A stretch of DNA of 64,000 bases, from contig CAWDVR010000001.1 of assembly GCA_963805975.1 (NCBI GenBank), forward strand, positions 1,440,001-1,504,000, read 5' to 3'. Positions 33,804-43,464 of the stretch are shown here, one piece after another. The DNA is from an uncultured Acidobacteriota bacterium. Its GTDB lineage: Bacteria; Acidobacteriota; Thermoanaerobaculia; Multivoradales; SZUA-115. The translations under genes were made by a program, and so were the position numbers. A model generated the notes under the pieces. The model was not told the origin of the DNA, did not search any database, and worked only from the letters and a program-made list of their open reading frames with translations. Within the stretch, counting starts at the first letter, position 1, and every line of letters starts with the position of its first letter.

Positions 33804-34406
33804 ATGAGTGCCGCCCACCGCCCCCGCCCGGCCGAGAATGAGGTCAGGGAACCGCAGCAGGTGGCCTATGCCGCGGAAGCCCCGCGGGCGCTTTTTCTCG
33901 ATCACGTCGTGGAACGCATCGCCACGGAGATGCGGTTCCTGGCCCGCGCTTATGCCGCGCAAGGCCGCTCTCTCGAGGAGCTGGGCTCGGCGGATGAGGT
34001 GGCCAACCGGATGGTTGCCACCCTGCCCGCACCGTCCGGCTGGAACGCGGTGCTGGGACCGTTCTACGGCTCGGCCCAGATCGGCAAGATCCTGGGCAAC
34101 GTCTCCCGGCAGGCGGTGGCCGACCGTCGGTCCCGGCGCACGCTGCTGGCTCTGCGCACTTCGGACGGCCAGTGGGTCTACCCGACCTTTCAGTTCGACG
34201 AGCGCCAGGAAGTTCTAACAGGCCTGCCGGCAGTAGTGCAGATCCTCGCCGAGAGCGGAGTCGACGACTGGACGCTGGCCGGCTGGCTGGTATCTCCGAT
34301 GCGTTCCCTCGGCGGCGCCACTCCTATCGACTGGCTGCGTTCCGGGAACGACGCTGTGATTCTCCGGACCTTGGCGCGCGATGCAGCGCGGCGTTTCGCG
34401 CAGTAG
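33804..34406 (+). CDS. Putative antitoxin (HTH plus Xre/MbcA/ParS-like C-terminus)
   Basis: NVSRQAV HTH, YPTFQF, WLVSP..LGGATPIDWL; directly upstream of a RES gene. Confidence 0.75.
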   Translation: MSAAHRPRPAENEVREPQQVAYAAEAPRALFLDHVVERIATEMRFLARAYAAQGRSLEELGSADEVANRMVATLPAPSGWNAVLGPFYGSAQIGKILGNVSRQAVADRRSRRTLLALRTSDGQWVYPTFQFDERQEVLTGLPAVVQILAESGVDDWTLAGWLVSPMRSLGGATPIDWLRSGNDAVILRTLARDAARRFAQ

Positions 34407-34444
34407 AACAAACGCCAGCCGCCGTGCCCAAGCGAAGCGAGACC

Positions 34445-35065
34445 GTGAGCCTGGCCCCGCCGCCGGCAGACCCGGCGGCGCTCGAGGGTTTTCCGCGGAT
34501 GGTGCTCGAGAGCGTGACCTGCCTGTATCGCGTGGGCCGCGCCGAGCGCTCACCCTGGTGGTTCGGAAGCTCGCTCGAGGGCCGCTTCGATCTGCCCGAG
34601 CCCGACGGCACCTGCTACGTGGCTCTCGATCCTCTCGCCGCCCTGCTGGAGGTGATCGGGCCCGACCGCGAGCGCGGCTATCTGAGCGCCGAGCACTTGG
34701 CTCGCCGTCGAATCTACGAGCTCTATCTCGAAGACGACCGCGTCCTTGCCGACCTCCCCGCAACGCAGGCCGCCGCCTTCGGAGTGACACTCGAGATCCA
34801 CGCCATCGTTCCCTACGACCTTCCCCAGACCTGGGCGCACCGGCTCCGGGCCGCGGGATTCGAGGGCGTCCGATATCTCGTGCGTCACGATCCTTCGGGC
34901 GAAGACGGCCTCGCGCTGTTCGGCTCCCATGGCGGCCACCCGGACTGGCCAGTCGACGAGGAGAGGGAGATCGGCGCACAGATGCTCGAGCGGCTCGAGA
35001 CCCGCTACGGCCTCAAGGTGCTCCGCATCCCACACTCGAGCCAGATCGAGGTCGTCGGCTCGTAG
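34445..35065 (+). CDS. RES domain toxin (NAD+ phosphorylase family)
   Basis: LYRV, GRFDL, GTCY, ALLE, GVRY..R motifs. Confidence 0.82.
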   Translation: MSLAPPPADPAALEGFPRMVLESVTCLYRVGRAERSPWWFGSSLEGRFDLPEPDGTCYVALDPLAALLEVIGPDRERGYLSAEHLARRRIYELYLEDDRVLADLPATQAAAFGVTLEIHAIVPYDLPQTWAHRLRAAGFEGVRYLVRHDPSGEDGLALFGSHGGHPDWPVDEEREIGAQMLERLETRYGLKVLRIPHSSQIEVVGS

Positions 35066-36391: not shown

Positions 36392-37027
36392 ATGGGCCAA
36401 GAGGAAGCCGGTGGTCTGCTGCAACGAGCCCTGGCCGGCGATCAGATCTCTCTGTCCCGCCTGGTTGCCGTGCTGACGCCGGTGATCCAGGCGCGGGCCG
36501 CGCGTACCTTGCTGCCCCGCCGCTCGCGTCTCGCCGACGGGCGAAGCATGCGGCAGGAGGTCGAGGACGTCAGCCAGGAGATCTTCGTCCTGCTCTTCTC
36601 CAACAACGCCCGGGTCCTGCGTAGCTGGCAGGCGGAGCGCGGCCTTTCTCTCGAGAACTTCGTCGGTCTGGTCACCCAACGGCAGATCGTCTCCTTCCTC
36701 CGCAGCGGCAAGCGGAACCCGTGGCGGGAGGAGCCCTTCGCCGCGGAGGATCTCCTCACCGAAGCGCCGGAGCCTGGGCCCGAGCAGGTCGCCGCCAGCC
36801 GCGAGCAACTTCGCCTGGTGCTCGATCGGCTACGGGCCGACGTAAGCCCCCTGGGCTGGCGGCTCTTCGAGCTGCTCTTCATCGAGGAGCTGCCGCTGCC
36901 CGAGGTCATGGCCGCGAGTGGCCTCTCCGCCGACGCGGTCTACGCCTGGCGGAGCCGTCTGCGCCGGCTGGCCCACCAGTTGCTGGCTGGCTTGTCAGGA
37001 AACTCGGCGGGCGGGCGAAATACGTAG
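36392..37027 (+). CDS. ECF RNA polymerase sigma factor
   Basis: EVEDVSQEIF (region 2) and LSADAVYAWRSRLRR (region 4.2 HTH); 211 aa. Confidence 0.85.
   Translation: MGQEEAGGLLQRALAGDQISLSRLVAVLTPVIQARAARTLLPRRSRLADGRSMRQEVEDVSQEIFVLLFSNNARVLRSWQAERGLSLENFVGLVTQRQIVSFLRSGKRNPWREEPFAAEDLLTEAPEPGPEQVAASREQLRLVLDRLRADVSPLGWRLFELLFIEELPLPEVMAASGLSADAVYAWRSRLRRLAHQLLAGLSGNSAGGRNT
36993..37019 (+). promoter_or_regulatory. Putative ECF promoter TGTCAG-N16-GCGAA (copy 1)
   Basis: Inside the sigma gene 3' end, 22 nt before the anti-sigma ATG. Confidence 0.7.
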
Positions 37028-37041
37028 AGAGATGGCCACAC

Positions 37042-37857
37042 ATGAGTAAAGACCCACTGTTGAGCGATCTGGCGCGCCTGGCTCGCGAGGAAGACCGCGG
37101 CGAAGACATGGCCCTCGACGAGCGTTGGGATCGCCTTGCCGCGGGGACGCTCACCGCCGAAGAGGAGGCAGAGCTGAAGGCCCTCGCCGCGACCTCACCC
37201 GAGGCGCGGGACGCCTACGAGGCCTTCCGGCCCCTCGGAGCCGAGTTCGAGGTTCGGATGGTGGCCGCGGCCGCCGCCGAGCTGAGCGGCGACCACCGAG
37301 AGGTCGACCCTCGGCCGGTGCCGGCTCGCGTGCTCCCGTTTCAGCGGCCTGCGGTGCGCCTGTGGGGCTCACTGGCCGCCGCAAGCGCGGTGGCGGCGTC
37401 GCTGCTCCTCCTCTTGCGCGGGCCGGGCGGACTGCCCCATCTGCCTGTCTACACCGCCGAGCTGAGCGGTGGGAGCCAGATCCTCCGCGGAGGCGACCTG
37501 GTCCTGGGGCCGCCGGTCTTCACCCTCGGTTCGTTGCTGACTCTCGAAGTCCGCCCGGCGCAGTCGGTGAATGGCCTGGTGGAAGCGCGCAGTTTCCTCA
37601 CCCGCGGCGAGGAGGTGGTGCGCTGGGAGCGGGAGCCGCCCCTGGAGGTCGCCGGCGGCGCCGTGCGCCTGCGAGGAACGCTCGGCGAGGAGATCCGCCT
37701 GCCGGCGGGAGACTGGCGGCTGTGGATCGTCCTCGCCCGGCCAGGCGAGATGCCGTCGCCCGAGGAGGTCTTGGCAGATCGGGAGAGGAGCAGTGGGGGC
37801 CCCGGCTGGCAGGCGATTTCCGTGGAGCTGCGGGTGGAGGGCCTCTCCGACCCGTGA
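37042..37857 (+). CDS. Putative transmembrane anti-sigma factor
   Basis: N-terminal WDRLAAGTLTAEEEAEL helices, single TM (LWGSLAAASAVAASLLLLL), extracytoplasmic beta-rich domain; follows the ECF gene. Confidence 0.7.
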   Translation: MSKDPLLSDLARLAREEDRGEDMALDERWDRLAAGTLTAEEEAELKALAATSPEARDAYEAFRPLGAEFEVRMVAAAAAELSGDHREVDPRPVPARVLPFQRPAVRLWGSLAAASAVAASLLLLLRGPGGLPHLPVYTAELSGGSQILRGGDLVLGPPVFTLGSLLTLEVRPAQSVNGLVEARSFLTRGEEVVRWEREPPLEVAGGAVRLRGTLGEEIRLPAGDWRLWIVLARPGEMPSPEEVLADRERSSGGPGWQAISVELRVEGLSDP

Positions 37858-40595
37858 CCTCCCAGGAATCTCGGCCCGGCCGCGCCTTCGCCTTCCTCGT
37901 GGGCCTCGCCGGGGTGCTGCCGGGCTGCGGGCCCGGACCAGGGCCCGCGCCGCAGGTGGAGTATGCGCGTTGCTGGGCCGTGGACCTGCCCGGCCCGGTT
38001 TGCGTGCTCTACCCTGATCGCCAGCTCAAGCTGTGGGTCGAGGCTGACCCTCGCGACAGCGTCGAGATCGAGGCCGGGGGCGAGCGCCTGCCAGCCACGG
38101 GCGAGGAAGTGGGGGGCGGCCGGCGTTACCTGCTGGAAGCTCCACCGGCGGCCACCACGCTCAACATCCGCCTGCACCGACCGGACGGCAGAGCGAGCGC
38201 GGCCTGGTCGCTGGCGCTCGCCGAGCCGGAGGCGCCGGCGTGGTTTGGCGAGATTCAAGGGCTTCTCGCGGCCGGCAAGACGGACGAGGCCCGGAGGGTG
38301 CTTGCTCCGCTGCGAGAGTCGGCGCCCGCTCGGCAGCAGGGACTGGTTCTGCAACTGCTGGCGCTGGCGGCCCTCTCCGCCGGAGACAAAGAAGGCGCCC
38401 TGGCCCATTTCGAGAGTGCCAAGGCAGCGGACCATGCCCGCCACCGGTTGAGCGGCGAGGCCCGGAACGCGGCCCTGCTAGCCCGGCTGCAACTGGAGAA
38501 TGGCCGCTTCAGAGAGGCTCGTCAGAACCTGGGCGGCCTGTTGCTGACCGAGCCGGCACCGGCCGATGCGAAGGTTCTCGCGGCCTACTACGAGGGCCTC
38601 CTGGCGGACCAAGTGGGTGACTCCCGCCGGGCCTTGCAGCAGCTCCGAGAGGCTGCCGACCTGGCCGACCGAACCGGTCTCCTCCACTATCGCTGGCAGA
38701 CCGAGCTGACCCTGGCCCGGCTGCTCCGGGACCTCGGGCGCTCGCAGAGCGCGGAGGAGATCTTCGTGCGGCTTGCGGCGAACCCCCATTTCGAGACGCC
38801 TTGCGACCGTGGGGTCCTGCTCCAGAACTGGTCCTGGTCGCGGCTGATCGGTCGCGAGGGAGGCGAGGAGGCCATGGACCCGACCGCGATGCTGGAGGAA
38901 GCCCTCGCGTTCTTCGACCGTAACTCCTGCGCTCGTCCGGAGCAACGCCTCAACGCTCGTCTGAACCTCGCGCTCGCTCAGCAGCAGGCCGGCCGCTGGC
39001 GTGAGGCGCGCCGGCTGCTCGCCGAGGCACTGCCGCTGGCGGACCATGCGACCCTGCGCCAGCGCCTGTGGTGGCAGGATCTCGACGGCCGGGCAGCCAT
39101 CGCCGAAGGCCAACCGGCGCGTGCCCTGCGCCTCTACCAGGCCCTCCAAGAGATAGCGGAGCAGTCCCTCTCGCGCGAAGGGAGCTTCCGGGCCTGCTTC
39201 GGCCGGGCCCGGGCGGAGCTCGCTCGGGGTCGCCGCGGTGCCGCCCTTGCCACCCTCGTGGAGGCGGATCGGCTCAGCGAGGAGCAGGTCTGGCAGATCC
39301 CGCTCCACGAGGGGCGCGACACTTTTCTTGCCATGCGCGAAGCCGCCACGCGGCTCCACCTGGAGCTCTTGCTGGCGGCCGGGCGGCACGAACAGGCCTT
39401 TGCCCTGGCGAGGCGTTCCCGCTCGCGACTGCTCCGGCAACTGATGGTGCGGGATCGCCTCGCCCAGCTCACCGCGGGAGAGCAGGAGGAATGGGACCGG
39501 GCGTTGTCCGACTACCAGGCCTTGCGGGCCGAGATCGACCGCGAGGCTGCAGCGGCCTGGCAGCTGCCGAAAGATCAGGTCCGGCGAGCCGGCGAGGGCC
39601 GGGCCGCGCAGCTCGCGGGGGCCCTCGCGGAGCTCGACCGGGCCGTGGCCGGCCTGGGAGATCTCGCGCCGGGCGGCGAGGGGGCGCTCGCCCCGCCGCG
39701 GCCGGGTGAGCTGATCCTGGCCTACCACCCCTTGCCCGGGGGTTGGGTAGGCTTCGCTGCCCACCCCGGCGCGGTCGAGGTGCACCGCTTCGAGCTGTCG
39801 CGGGAAGAGCTCGCCCATCCCGCGGCTCTGGCCCTGAGGCTGCTCGAGCCCTTCCGCTCGGCGATCGCGCAGGCCGAACGGCTGCGGGTGCTGGCCTACG
39901 GTGATCTGAGGCCGATCGACTTCCACGCCCTGCCTTTCGCCGGTGAGCCCCTCCTCGCTCGGCTTCCCGTGATCTTCGGGCTCGATCTACCCACCCGCAG
40001 CGCCGCCGGCCGCGAGGGCCCGCGGATCGCCCTCCTGGTCACCGACCCGGAAGGCAACCTGCCGGCGGCACGGCAGGAGGCCGCCCAAGTCGCCGCGAGA
40101 ATCGACGGTTGGGGCCCGGCGTGGGACCTCCGACGCCTCGACCGCCAGGCTGCCAGCGCCGGGGCACTGCGCGCCGCGCTTCCTCGAGCCGAGCTCTTCC
40201 ACTACGCCGGTCACGGGGCCTTCGCGGGCTTCGCCGGCTGGGACAGCGTTCTGCGGCTGGCAGACAGCTCGCGGCTGACTCCCGCAGACATCCTGATCCT
40301 GCCCCAGGCCCCCGCCTGGGCCGTCCTCTCTGCCTGCGAAGCGGGGCGATCGTCCGGGGAGGCCCCGGGTGAAGGAATTGGCCTGGCGCAGGCGTTCCTG
40401 CTGGCCGGCACGCGAGCGGTGGTCGCGGCCACCCGCCCGGTGACGGACCGTGCCGCTCGCGACCTGCTGGGAGAGCTCTACCGCGACTGGAAGCCCGGTG
40501 AGGATCTGGCGCAGGCGCTCCGGGCGGCCCAGCTCGCTTGCCGGCGGCAGGACCCGGCCGCTGACTGGGCGAGCTTCCGACTGCTCGAACCTTGA
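37854..40595 (+). CDS. TPR-CHAT (caspase-like) protease, probable lipoprotein
   Basis: GTGA overlap; FAFLVGLAGVLPGC lipobox-like; TPR-like helices; FHYAGHG and VLSACE dyad; GLAQAFLLAG; WASF. Confidence 0.88.
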   Translation: MTSQESRPGRAFAFLVGLAGVLPGCGPGPGPAPQVEYARCWAVDLPGPVCVLYPDRQLKLWVEADPRDSVEIEAGGERLPATGEEVGGGRRYLLEAPPAATTLNIRLHRPDGRASAAWSLALAEPEAPAWFGEIQGLLAAGKTDEARRVLAPLRESAPARQQGLVLQLLALAALSAGDKEGALAHFESAKAADHARHRLSGEARNAALLARLQLENGRFREARQNLGGLLLTEPAPADAKVLAAYYEGLLADQVGDSRRALQQLREAADLADRTGLLHYRWQTELTLARLLRDLGRSQSAEEIFVRLAANPHFETPCDRGVLLQNWSWSRLIGREGGEEAMDPTAMLEEALAFFDRNSCARPEQRLNARLNLALAQQQAGRWREARRLLAEALPLADHATLRQRLWWQDLDGRAAIAEGQPARALRLYQALQEIAEQSLSREGSFRACFGRARAELARGRRGAALATLVEADRLSEEQVWQIPLHEGRDTFLAMREAATRLHLELLLAAGRHEQAFALARRSRSRLLRQLMVRDRLAQLTAGEQEEWDRALSDYQALRAEIDREAAAAWQLPKDQVRRAGEGRAAQLAGALAELDRAVAGLGDLAPGGEGALAPPRPGELILAYHPLPGGWVGFAAHPGAVEVHRFELSREELAHPAALALRLLEPFRSAIAQAERLRVLAYGDLRPIDFHALPFAGEPLLARLPVIFGLDLPTRSAAGREGPRIALLVTDPEGNLPAARQEAAQVAARIDGWGPAWDLRRLDRQAASAGALRAALPRAELFHYAGHGAFAGFAGWDSVLRLADSSRLTPADILILPQAPAWAVLSACEAGRSSGEAPGEGIGLAQAFLLAGTRAVVAATRPVTDRAARDLLGELYRDWKPGEDLAQALRAAQLACRRQDPAADWASFRLLEP

Positions 40596-40612: not shown

Positions 40613-40639
40613 TGTCAGAAACCTCCGCTTCGCCGCGAA
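40613..40639 (+). promoter_or_regulatory. Putative ECF promoter TGTCAG-N16-GCGAA (copy 2)
   Basis: Intergenic, upstream of the S8 protease gene. Confidence 0.72.
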
Positions 40640-40726
40640 GGCCCTCCTGGGTAGCGGCAATCGATCCACGCGGGGCTCACCCCACCACGGGGCGACCTTT
40701 CTCGCCGCGCCTGGGAGAGATGTCCT

Positions 40727-42871
40727 ATGAAATCCGGAAGCCTTTGTGTCGTAGCCCTGATCGGATTGGTGTGGGCCGCCGCCGGGCATGCGGCTTCGGT
40801 GTCGATCCCACCCGAAGGCGAAGCCGACTACCCGCAAACGCCGGTCGTGGTGCCACAGACGAGTCGGTCGATCGATCCCAAGAGCGCCATCGCGCACTGG
40901 CGGCAGATCGGCCTGCGGAGCAAGGCCACGGACCGGTGCCCAACGGTGGATGGTTGGGCCGTCGAGAGCCTGCTGAGCCGAGCTCTCTCCTCGACGAACT
41001 GTGGGCCCGAGACCCTCGACCCCCAAGGCCCGTCCGAGGCCGCGCTCCGCGAGGAGCTGACAGACCTCGCCTTGCTGCGAAAGCTTGGGCTGGATCGGAT
41101 CTGCCTCTACACCGCCGACCCGCGCAACATTCCAGCCTTCAAGAAGGACGGCAAGCTGCCCGCCGACCTGGTGGCAGCGGCACCAGATCGCATGGCCCTG
41201 GCGCCAGCCGCGACGCCGGAAGCTTCGCTCGGCACGCTGGCCTTGGAGAGCTGGCAGATCCTGCGCACCCATTTCCTGGAGCAGGCTGGCAACACCTTCG
41301 ATCCCGCCAACCGGCTGCGCTTCACCGGCAAGCCGAGCGTCCGCCTGGTCTTCCTCGATACCCATCCAACCGGCGAGCGTGTACCGAGCGGTCCCGGTCG
41401 CTCGTTTCACGGCTACACCCTGGCCCACTTGGCCAACCAACTCATTTGCGGTGGCGAAGCCGGCTGTGCGGTCGAGATCGATACCCGCCTCGCAATGCCC
41501 TATGTGAACTTCGATGAATCGTCCGCCGACGAGGAGAGAGGAGGAAAGATGGGCCTGGTGGCCAACCTCTCTGCGGCGATCCTCGAGGAGGTTTGGCAGT
41601 GGCGGCGGGATCGCGACCCTGACCGGCCAAAGCACCTGGTGCTCAACCTGTCGTTGGGTTGGGATGGCGAGCTCTTCGGCGATCTCAACGCGCAGACCGT
41701 CTCCAGGCTCGAACCGGGGGTCAGGGCGGTCTACGACGCGCTGACCTTCGCCCGCGACCTCGGAGTGCTGGTGGTTGCCGCCGCCGGCAACGAGCGCGGG
41801 GGGCCGGCGAAGCCCTCCAGCCCCCTGTTTCCCGCCGTCTGGGAGCTGCATAGGCCAGCCAGTGGGCCATTCGCTTCTTGCAGAAAACCGATCTACGCCG
41901 TCGGCGGAGTGGACTGGCAAGGGCTGCCGGTGGCCAACGCCCGCACTGATGGCAAACCACGGCGTTCCGCCTACGCGGATCACGCCGTGACCGGCACCGA
42001 AGCCAGAGGAGCCGAGAGTCCTACGTGGATCTACACCGGAACCTCGGTGGGGGCCGCCGTCACCTCGTCGATCGCCGCCGCCGTCTGGCACCTGCGCCCG
42101 GAGCTGGGCCCAGGCCAGGTAATGAGGTTGATCGACCGCTCCGGAGAATCCCTGGAGGCGCGTGCCGACTTCTACCCCTGGCAGCGGAATCCGCTACTGC
42201 GCTGGATCCGAGGCGAACCGCGGCTCCGCCGGGTGTCTCTCTGCCGCGCGACCGCTCTCGCCCGGGGCCGAGGGCCGGAGTGCTTCTGCCCCAAGTGGAG
42301 ACGCGAGCCGCCGGTGCTGGCGCGCCCGATGCCTCCCCCAGCGACCGATTTCGTGGAGAGCGACCCGGAAGCCTATGGTCAGCGCTGCACGTCCACCAGA
42401 CGGCTGATGGTCAACGACAACCTCCTGCCAAAGGAGATCTGCCCGGCGGAGAGATTCGGCGACATCGCCAGTCAGCGCTGGACCTTTCCCCAGCCCGAGG
42501 ACAACCCCTGCATGGGCTGCGCGCTGATCCCGCCGCGAGAAACCGCCACCTTTCCGGAGCCCGAGGGCCCTCCGCCTTACACCCTGCAGATGGCCCTTCG
42601 TCCTGGGTGGCGCGACGAGGGCGCCGAGATCCTCGCCGCCACCCTCGACATCGAGCGTTTCGAGGGCGACCGGATGACCTACGTGATTTCTCAGGAACAT
42701 ATCGATAGGCTCAATGATCGAGACCCAATCCCGACCGGGACCAGCATCCAGCTTCTATTCAGCTTGGCCGACCGCGGGTCGCTCTGGGGCTGCACGGCCC
42801 GGCTCAACTTCAAGGTGAGGCGCGGCGACGAGGTCACATCGATCATCGACCCGGTGATCGTGGACCCCTAG
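40727..42871 (+). CDS. Secreted divergent S8 family serine protease, Cys-rich C-terminal region
   Basis: Signal peptide; FLDT, FHGYT, LNLSLGW, AAAGN, TGTSVGAA catalytic motifs. Confidence 0.82.
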   Translation: MKSGSLCVVALIGLVWAAAGHAASVSIPPEGEADYPQTPVVVPQTSRSIDPKSAIAHWRQIGLRSKATDRCPTVDGWAVESLLSRALSSTNCGPETLDPQGPSEAALREELTDLALLRKLGLDRICLYTADPRNIPAFKKDGKLPADLVAAAPDRMALAPAATPEASLGTLALESWQILRTHFLEQAGNTFDPANRLRFTGKPSVRLVFLDTHPTGERVPSGPGRSFHGYTLAHLANQLICGGEAGCAVEIDTRLAMPYVNFDESSADEERGGKMGLVANLSAAILEEVWQWRRDRDPDRPKHLVLNLSLGWDGELFGDLNAQTVSRLEPGVRAVYDALTFARDLGVLVVAAAGNERGGPAKPSSPLFPAVWELHRPASGPFASCRKPIYAVGGVDWQGLPVANARTDGKPRRSAYADHAVTGTEARGAESPTWIYTGTSVGAAVTSSIAAAVWHLRPELGPGQVMRLIDRSGESLEARADFYPWQRNPLLRWIRGEPRLRRVSLCRATALARGRGPECFCPKWRREPPVLARPMPPPATDFVESDPEAYGQRCTSTRRLMVNDNLLPKEICPAERFGDIASQRWTFPQPEDNPCMGCALIPPRETATFPEPEGPPPYTLQMALRPGWRDEGAEILAATLDIERFEGDRMTYVISQEHIDRLNDRDPIPTGTSIQLLFSLADRGSLWGCTARLNFKVRRGDEVTSIIDPVIVDP

Positions 42872-42893
42872 CGGAATCTCTACGTCTCGCCTC

Positions 42894-42931
42894 ACGCTGC
42901 CGGCCGGGGTCGAGCCCTCGGCCGGCAGCGT
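42894..42931. terminator. Hairpin between the convergent S8 and small peptide genes
   Basis: ACGCTGCCGGCCG / CGGCCGGCAGCGT perfect 13-bp stem. Confidence 0.65.
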
Positions 42932-43195
42932 TCACTGCTCGAGCTCTTCATGGGGCGAGACGGCATACGCTTCGTCGTCTCCGCCGGGCACCAACGTGCA
43001 ACCCATGCACGGGTTGTTCGCGGGCTTGTCCCACGCCCGTACTAACCACCGCTGTAGGAGCTCCCAGAGAGCGCCGACCCCGAAGACCGTTTTCGCCCCA
43101 CCACGCACCGGCGCCGCCCCCGCAAGGGACGATCCCGACAGCATGGCAAGGGCTACCACCACGACCACCGCGAAGCGCAGCTCACGTCGTGCCAT
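42932..43195 (-). CDS. Small secreted protein (87 aa) with PANNPCMGCTLVP motif
   Basis: GGAGG RBS, Sec-type signal peptide, amphipathic LWELLQRWLVRAW helix, motif shared with the adjacent S8 protease. Confidence 0.75.
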   Translation of the reverse strand: MARRELRFAVVVVVALAMLSGSSLAGAAPVRGGAKTVFGVGALWELLQRWLVRAWDKPANNPCMGCTLVPGGDDEAYAVSPHEELEQ

Positions 43196-43284: not shown

Positions 43285-43311
43285 TGTCAGAAATCCCCCG
43301 CGGCCAGCGAA
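43285..43311 (+). promoter_or_regulatory. Putative ECF promoter TGTCAG-N16-GCGAA (copy 3)
   Basis: Same motif and spacing as copies 1 and 2. Confidence 0.68.
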
Positions 43312-43374
43312 GTGCTCTGTATCGAGGCCGGAAGACAGGATCTCCCTGTTTTCACGAGCACGGAGTACTTCATC

Positions 43375-43464
43375 ATGGCAAACGAACGGAGCTTGCGTCG
43401 TCGGGAAAAGCAAGCGATCTACAGCCTCGTAGCGACTTCACAGTGGCCGGGAGAGTGGAGCTGA
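43375..43464 (+). CDS. Possible 29-aa small ORF (MANERSLRRREKQAIYSLVATSQWPGEWS)
   Basis: GGAG 9 nt before ATG; downstream of promoter copy 3. Confidence 0.3.
   Translation: MANERSLRRREKQAIYSLVATSQWPGEWS

Follow-up and report, generated by a model that had tools for sequence, protein, structure and literature searches.

The stretch analyzed here, hereafter the window, is a DNA segment of 64,000 nucleotides (nt) from an uncultured Acidobacteriota bacterium of the class Thermoanaerobaculia (assembly GCA_963805975.1, contig CAWDVR010000001.1, positions 1,440,001 to 1,504,000 of the forward strand). It holds an operon of four genes, encoding a sigma factor of the extracytoplasmic function (ECF) type, a putative membrane anti-sigma factor, a tetratricopeptide repeat (TPR)-CHAT protease and a secreted S8 protease, and, convergent with the last of these, a small open reading frame (ORF) for a secreted peptide precursor (Table 1). 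The S8 protease carries a Pro/Cys motif that is near-invariant among its relatives, and the small ORF contains a free copy of it. This motif may be the ligand that activates the TPR-CHAT protein, a reading weighed below against its alternatives.

Table 1. Features of the locus, with positions counted from the first letter of the window.
Feature	Position	Strand	Remarks
ECF-type sigma factor, 211 residues	36392..37027	+	TIGR02937 (NCBIfam) E 4e-6, below its cut-off; relatives 27-69% identical, at the same operon position
Near-consensus two-box promoter copy within the sigma gene end, facing the anti-sigma gene	36993..37020	+	third-best position weight matrix (PWM) site, 24.0 bits
Putative single-pass membrane anti-sigma factor, 271 residues	37042..37857	+	role suggested by position and one hydrophobic helix
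TPR-CHAT protease, predicted lipoprotein	37854..40595	+	PF12770 E 4e-30 and TPR matches; lipobox Cys 37926, His motif 40200, Cys motif 40326
Two-box ECF-type promoter ahead of the S8 gene, TGTCAGAAA-N14-GCGAA type	40613..40640	+	strict copy, one of two genome-wide
Secreted S8 (subtilase) protease, 714 residues; D211, H228, N355, S440	40727..42871	+	PF00082 above cut-off; pro-subtilisin fold
S8-borne motif PQPxxxPCxxC, residues 588-602, candidate ligand	42488..42532	+	near-invariant in relatives
Hairpin rich in G+C, between the stop codons of S8 and the small ORF	42896..42929	.	z = -3.2; 1 of 200 shuffles folds as well
Secreted peptide precursor, 87 residues	42932..43195	-	DPxG-family scaffold (residues 1-57), then S8-type motif and acidic tail
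Free motif copy in the small ORF	42986..43027	-	equivalents of P590, P594, C595, C598 and P602 kept; without P588-Q589
Second strict ECF-type promoter copy, facing a 29-codon ORF	43285..43312	+	back to back with the upstream region of the small gene
ORF of 29 residues with ribosome-binding site	43375..43464	+	where homologous loci have large cargo genes

The four-gene operon and its two-box promoter

All four operon genes are found in 89 of 130 S8-bearing loci and the CHAT gene in 119 of them, counts that include duplicates and truncated contigs; the named relatives belong to the Thermoanaerobaculia and the Myxococcota. The putative anti-sigma factor does not return any match in Pfam or NCBIfam. 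Following its hydrophobic segment (from 37468), a GGxxxxRG stretch is conserved over 76 relatives and represents a candidate cut site for the CHAT protease. The TPR-CHAT protein keeps its lipobox LxxC in close relatives, and its residues H762 and C803 are invariant in 94 sequences. Its structure model is closest to DdvA (8rot, E 9e-16), followed by Csx29 and separase. The S8 protease possesses the complete Asp/His/Ser triad, the oxyanion Asn and the subtilisin fold, with catalytic residues 96-100% conserved in 120 relatives. In a quick tree of the catalytic domain, it groups with three database proteins (P0002-P0004, SH-aLRT 96) and not with the S8 proteases of genomes from its own genus or family, a placement that suggests horizontal acquisition of the operon.

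A two-box promoter recurs across these loci. The GTCAGAA box is found in 45 of 52 CHAT-S8 intergenic regions, and the strict pattern TGTCAGA[AT]-N13-15-[GT]CGAA precedes 55 of 120 S8 genes; in homologous loci it is also found at sigma gene ends and before the cargo genes that follow S8. The present genome contains two strict copies, at 40613 and 43285, and none of four two-box control patterns. A further copy at 36993 has one mismatch and occupies the same position in several homologous loci. These three are the top three PWM promoter sites of the whole genome and all lie in this locus. We infer that the sigma factor of the operon reads this promoter, which suggests that S8, anti-sigma and CHAT are targets of their own switch, in a positive feedback. 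The predicted regulon in this genome comprises anti-sigma/CHAT, S8 and the 29-codon ORF.

The region downstream of S8 departs from this scheme by the presence of the small gene. Of the S8 genes followed by 1 kb or more of sequence (107), 35 have a co-oriented promoter within 1 kb downstream, in 33 cases at 162 nt or less. In the window, 414 nt separate the S8 gene from that promoter, a spacing due to the small gene, which lies in reverse orientation between the S8 stop codon and the next promoter of the regulon. A scan around the small gene reports neither a sigma-70 promoter nor a U-tract terminator. The 29-codon ORF beyond it is possibly the remnant of a cargo gene, as judged from position only, and no similarity to the cargo genes of homologous loci was found. 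A cargo family recurs after S8 and behind an ECF-type promoter in eight loci (L157, L158, L160, L163, L196, L210, L215 and L226); many members have ~700-770 residues and exhibit an NPN[YH]FG stretch near the N-terminus.

The Pro/Cys motif of S8 and its free copy

Among the best 120 of 180 relatives, the S8 motif is conserved at 100% for P590, C595 and C598, 99% for P594, 92% for P588 and 93% for Q589. Between the two cysteines, the Met of the window protein is a rare form, Pro being usual (85%), and the motifs differ by clade around the fixed Pro/Cys positions. The protein ends at most 8 residues past the second Cys of the motif in 21 of 115 S8 genes. In the AlphaFold model of the window S8 (mean predicted local distance difference test score, pLDDT, 85.5), residues 586-589 form the sole run below 50 beyond the N-terminal region, and the CxxC part lies within a 10-residue block of mean pLDDT ~80. 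Being conserved, poorly packed and often terminal, the motif has the look of a candidate ligand for another protein. A ligand or docking role had been proposed for it in the first-pass annotation, an idea with which the near-invariance in the family, the C-terminal position in part of it and the low model confidence of the PQP segment agree. Three sets of loci (L006/L197, L019 and L185) contain two S8 genes near each other with differing motif variants.

The S8 copy (42491-42532, forward strand) reads QPEDNPCMGCALIP and the small-ORF copy (42986-43027, reverse strand) reads KPANNPCMGCTLVP. Over 14 residues, the two copies agree at 9, and over the 42 bases at 32. Four codon pairs show synonymous differences, which, like the base count, is as first annotated. 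Equally present are the elements described earlier for the small ORF, namely a ribosome-binding site (GGAGG, 5 nt ahead of the ATG), a basic-hydrophobic N-terminus that reads by eye as a signal peptide, a Trp-rich stretch, the motif and an acidic tail. A six-frame search of the 5.36-Mb genome retrieves NPCMGC only two times, in the S8 gene and in the small ORF. Among 69,522 frames, a motif profile from which all window sequences were left out puts S8 first (43.7 bits) and the small ORF second (17.8 bits), followed by an unrelated 35-residue frame elsewhere in the genome (17.6 bits). The motif of the small ORF, ~450 nt from that of S8, is not there by chance.

The base identity of the two copies is less telling. 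From the two peptide sequences and the local codon usage, 31.4 +/- 1.7 identical bases are expected (P(>=32)=0.47), so that the likeness of the motifs sits at the protein level. The 32/42 identity is evidence neither for a recent duplication nor, alone, for selection on the peptide. A recent DNA duplication out of the neighbouring S8 gene was rejected on this ground. The synonymous differences had been taken as a sign of selection on the peptide sequence, a conclusion that is not supported here: the identity equals expectation, and capture from a sister S8 allele could produce such differences as well.

The N-terminal part of the small ORF belongs to a different family. The genome contains at least seven other secreted precursors in which a signal peptide is combined with an amphipathic Trp helix and units resembling G-x-x-x-D-P-x-G (DPxG-type precursors, in this genome at C1:196253, C1:963909, C2:575045, C2:840707, C3:214130, C4:67525, C4:551000 and C5:628730). 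Most of them adjoin a gene for a helical-repeat protein of 400-470 residues; three of these neighbours were scanned and all are TPR proteins. A literature search returned no published description of DPxG/DPNG peptide precursors. A profile of 24 precursor N-terminal halves from other genomes, with the motif excluded, matches the small ORF at E 3.8e-6 (29.0 bits), which places it sixth genome-wide, among the genome's own precursors; further scaffold comparisons give E 8.5e-4 and, by hhalign, 74% (E 2.8e-5). The motif GTGGC(C/T)GGC stands in the 5' leader of the small ORF and of five of seven DPxG precursors, against a background of 0.018 per 70 nt. The small ORF reads K-PANNPCM-G-C at the place of the family's K-[ED]-G-C, and it has Val-Pro-Gly-Gly in place of the Asp-Pro-x-Gly core, whose Asp is present in 45 of 46 motif units of the family. 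When 180 distinct S8 motifs are ranked by likeness to that of the small ORF, its own S8 comes third, the two better ones belonging to the sister clade. By sequence comparison, the small gene is chimeric, joining a DPxG, pheromone-type scaffold to the motif variant of the local S8 clade. The earlier proposal of a pheromone or decoy mimicking S8 thus gains a pheromone-precursor-like scaffold and the variant of the local clade, and loses conservation, as detailed below. Elsewhere, a DPxG-type precursor with GCxxxPDG repeats lies ~1.8 kb from an S8 gene (L195:12690-13079), and Cys-rich secreted mini-proteins are found near S8 loci (L012:4152-4499 and L188:19078-19374).

That the small ORF would be an ordinary, diverged DPxG pheromone for a cytoplasmic TPR protein of the genome, its likeness to S8 being incidental, is very improbable: the scaffold does belong to the family, the three scanned neighbours of such precursors are TPR proteins and variants such as GCQILPDG exist among them, but the Asp of the core is missing, the genes beside the small ORF are S8 and an EamA transporter with no adjacent cytoplasmic TPR gene, and its 7-residue insert bears the NPCM signature of the S8 clade right next to that S8.

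A candidate ligand for the TPR-CHAT lipoprotein

In the reading that we prefer, and to which we give somewhat less than an even chance (about 0.45), the S8 motif is the likely activating ligand of the TPR-CHAT lipoprotein, and the small peptide is a rare, sigma-independent add-on signal. The sigma factor would drive S8 from the two-box promoter, and the exported S8 would expose or release its Pro/Cys motif. Closed by a disulfide, the motif would bind the TPR region and switch on CHAT, which would then cut the anti-sigma factor on its extracytoplasmic side. The probable site is the Arg of the conserved GGxxxxRG, separase being reported to cut after Arg (PMC11506125). The freed sigma factor would in turn yield more S8. 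The free peptide, processed near its WDK junction, could reach the same CHAT site in the absence of S8; its gene, lying outside the regulon's direction of transcription, would supply the motif independently of S8, as a primer or a competitor. Priming (agonist) is slightly favoured over jamming (decoy). A broader picture is put forward more tentatively still: in the Thermoanaerobaculia and Myxococcota, a secreted subtilase may carry a disulfide-loop ligand that a caspase-like CHAT lipoprotein reads in an envelope switch, cutting the anti-sigma factor so that the released sigma factor yields more subtilase. Single lineages would have moved the ligand to small secreted genes on two independent occasions, in one case by hijacking the pheromone precursor of another peptide system, with the effect of either priming or jamming the switch.

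Several observations weigh against this reading. A survey of 131 loci with 122 distinct S8 genes, of which 88 operons have at least 1.5 kb of downstream and 6 kb of upstream sequence, finds a free secreted motif copy in only 2 of these 88, on unrelated scaffolds. The second copy, an 82-residue ORF with signal peptide and ribosome-binding site near the sigma gene of its operon (genome G106), has an unrelated N-terminus, and its motif and linker come from another S8 clade (E 5e-15 to P0067, in a set of 120 proteins); it does not match its own S8, which ranks only 68 of 180. The first-pass annotation had suggested that homologous loci should each have a small secreted ORF co-varying with their own S8 motif. 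That test failed, so that the free peptide counts as an accessory confined to single lineages, found twice on different scaffolds. No peptide orthologue emerged from three large protein searches, which returned the small ORF itself only (2 candidates), one unrelated repeat protein, and one S8 fragment (579 candidates), nor from 301 genomes, in which only weak matches (E 4e-4 or worse), one of them a paralogue in the same genome, were found besides itself. The genome searches yielded no further true free copy, with a limited number of candidates per genome scored and weak copies possibly lost; one profile search missed the G106 copy, which gives the sensitivity limit of these negatives. Within the small ORF, P588-Q589 is absent: the residue aligned to P588 is Asp, seen in 0 of 196 S8 motifs, and that aligned to Q589 is Lys, seen in 1%. 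Only the 29-codon ORF follows the promoter at 43285, so that the output of the circuit may be decayed. Finally, no observation sets CHAT apart from S8 itself as the partner of the motif.

Outside S8 frames, the survey retrieved seven motif matches: the window ORF, the G106 ORF, an S8 piece at a contig end, the tail of a frameshifted S8, a duplicated S8 C-terminal motif that lacks a start codon, immediately downstream of the S8 stop codon (L184:6061-6294, G101:C607), and two weak ones. A conserved fifth gene of the operon was rejected given the 2 of 88 count. A strict DNA pattern of the motif, run on 300 genomes, gave 44 matches, corresponding to 17 S8 genes, the 2 known small ORFs and 25 others, which on reading proved to be shadow frames, unrelated proteins or frames interrupted by stops. 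Shadow frames also account for eight candidates from searches of short frames. Viral contigs contained no exact match to an NNPCMGC-type pattern, and the ESM Atlas returned nothing at 0.9 or more. The G106 copy (L100:4098-4346, reverse strand, G106:C1) has upstream a sigma-70-like promoter, TTGACA-N18-TATCCT, and a reverse half-site of the ECF-type motif, about as far from the ATG as in the window.

An alternative that we consider unlikely is that the motif acts on S8 itself, as an intramolecular latch, a self-cleavage site or a structural disulfide, the free peptide then being an S8 inhibitor or substrate decoy. The motif is confined to S8 in 86 of 88 operons, its CxxC part lies in the 10-residue block of mean pLDDT ~80, and S8-only loci without an adjacent CHAT gene keep it too (10 of the 130 loci have no CHAT match, some of them truncated). 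However, the PQP part is unpacked in the monomer model, and CHAT is a constant neighbour in most loci.

No better placed is an accidental chimera without function, in which an incoming DPxG precursor recombined recently with a sister S8 allele at a GCxLxPG look-alike. Here the singleton status of the small gene, its synonymous differences, which a donor allele could account for, and the rearranged locus (reverse insertion, and 414 nt to the next promoter against the usual 162 nt or less) find a ready explanation, and the start-less duplicate in G101 indicates that motif copies do arise by accident. Yet the ribosome-binding site, signal peptide, scaffold, leader and open frame are all intact, the five fixed Pro/Cys positions from P590 on are all kept, and the same motif was acquired at this operon by two unrelated scaffolds.

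Cross-strain communication is also quite improbable. In this case, the captured motif of another strain's S8 type would act on, or block, the receptors of neighbours and not those of the host. The peptide of the window is indeed nearer to the sister S8 proteases P0002-P0004 (10/14) than to its own (9/14), that of G106 was drawn, motif and linker, from a different S8 clade, and clade variation around the fixed positions is the rule among S8 motifs. Nevertheless, the window peptide still falls within the clade of its own S8, which may have drifted after the capture, and only two cases are known.

Relation to known systems and significance

Four described systems come closest to this locus. In DdvA-DdvS of Myxococcus xanthus, an ECF sigma factor is held by a single-pass membrane anti-sigma factor fused to an extracytoplasmic TPR-CHAT domain, and the system regulates a CBASS/CRISPR island (PMC11506125). 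The periplasmic domain was found resting, and a protein signal is proposed to be required for its activation, with a signal-induced site-1 cleavage as the proposed outcome (PMC11506125). The window shares the ECF sigma factor, a putative single-pass anti-sigma factor and a TPR-CHAT protein with the His-Cys dyad, whose extracytoplasmic location is predicted here. In contrast, its TPR-CHAT protein is a separate lipoprotein (ORFs 37042-37857 and 37854-40595), unfused in homologous loci as well, and its operon includes an S8 protease that carries the fixed motif. In its workings the operon resembles a DdvA-DdvS split into separate genes, and for want of the fusion it falls outside that group.

The ECF54 group, entirely from Actinobacteria (100%), has sigma genes near a subtilase and a TPR-CHAT gene, no putative anti-sigma factor, a carboxypeptidase-regulatory-like gene at position +1 and a GTATCAG/CTCC promoter (PMC7826278); the supplementary text on its genomic context describes no peptide or ligand. 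Subtilase and TPR-CHAT beside sigma are common to both contexts. The window differs by its +1 gene, which encodes a single-pass membrane protein without Pfam match, by its promoter (TGTCAGAAA/GCGAA) and by its relatives, which are Thermoanaerobaculia and Myxococcota and not Actinobacteria.

In the type III-E Craspase, the TPR-CHAT protein Csx29 is allosterically activated and frees a sigma factor via Csx30/CASP-sigma (PMC10028731). Csx29 structures are the next-best matches of the CHAT model of the window. However, Craspase is cytoplasmic and RNA-guided, whereas the CHAT protein of the window has a lipobox and no Cas7-11 partner in its operon. No CRISPR or CBASS gene was noticed beside the operon in the list of window ORFs, a list compiled with no PADLOC scan. 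Just before chorismate synthase and the sigma operon lies a gene pair for a Xre/MbcA/ParS-like antitoxin and a RES-domain protein (33804-35065, forward strand).

In RRNPP systems (Rap-Phr, NprR-NprX), a small secreted precursor is processed and its C-terminal part is read by a cytoplasmic TPR protein after re-import. A small secreted precursor and a TPR reader are also proposed here, but the receptor would itself be a protease, exported from the cytoplasm, and the ligand would come mainly from a second one. A literature search found no report on this operon, motif or peptide, subscription papers being mostly outside its coverage.

What activates TPR-CHAT proteases outside the cytoplasm is a standing question, as stated for DdvA (PMC11506125). 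The locus offers a promoter for a reporter, a ligand candidate of ~15 residues and a possible substrate in which an Arg is conserved, which brings the question within reach of a four-gene test in a laboratory host. If functional, the chimera would exemplify the rewiring of a peptide-signalling system through the export scaffold of a second one; should the peptide be accidental, the conserved motif and the promoter of the operon would still be a useful result. The operon is a probable form of protease-gated ECF signalling, distinct from those described, for which it supplies a candidate ligand and a promoter; the peptide is rare and a putative effector.

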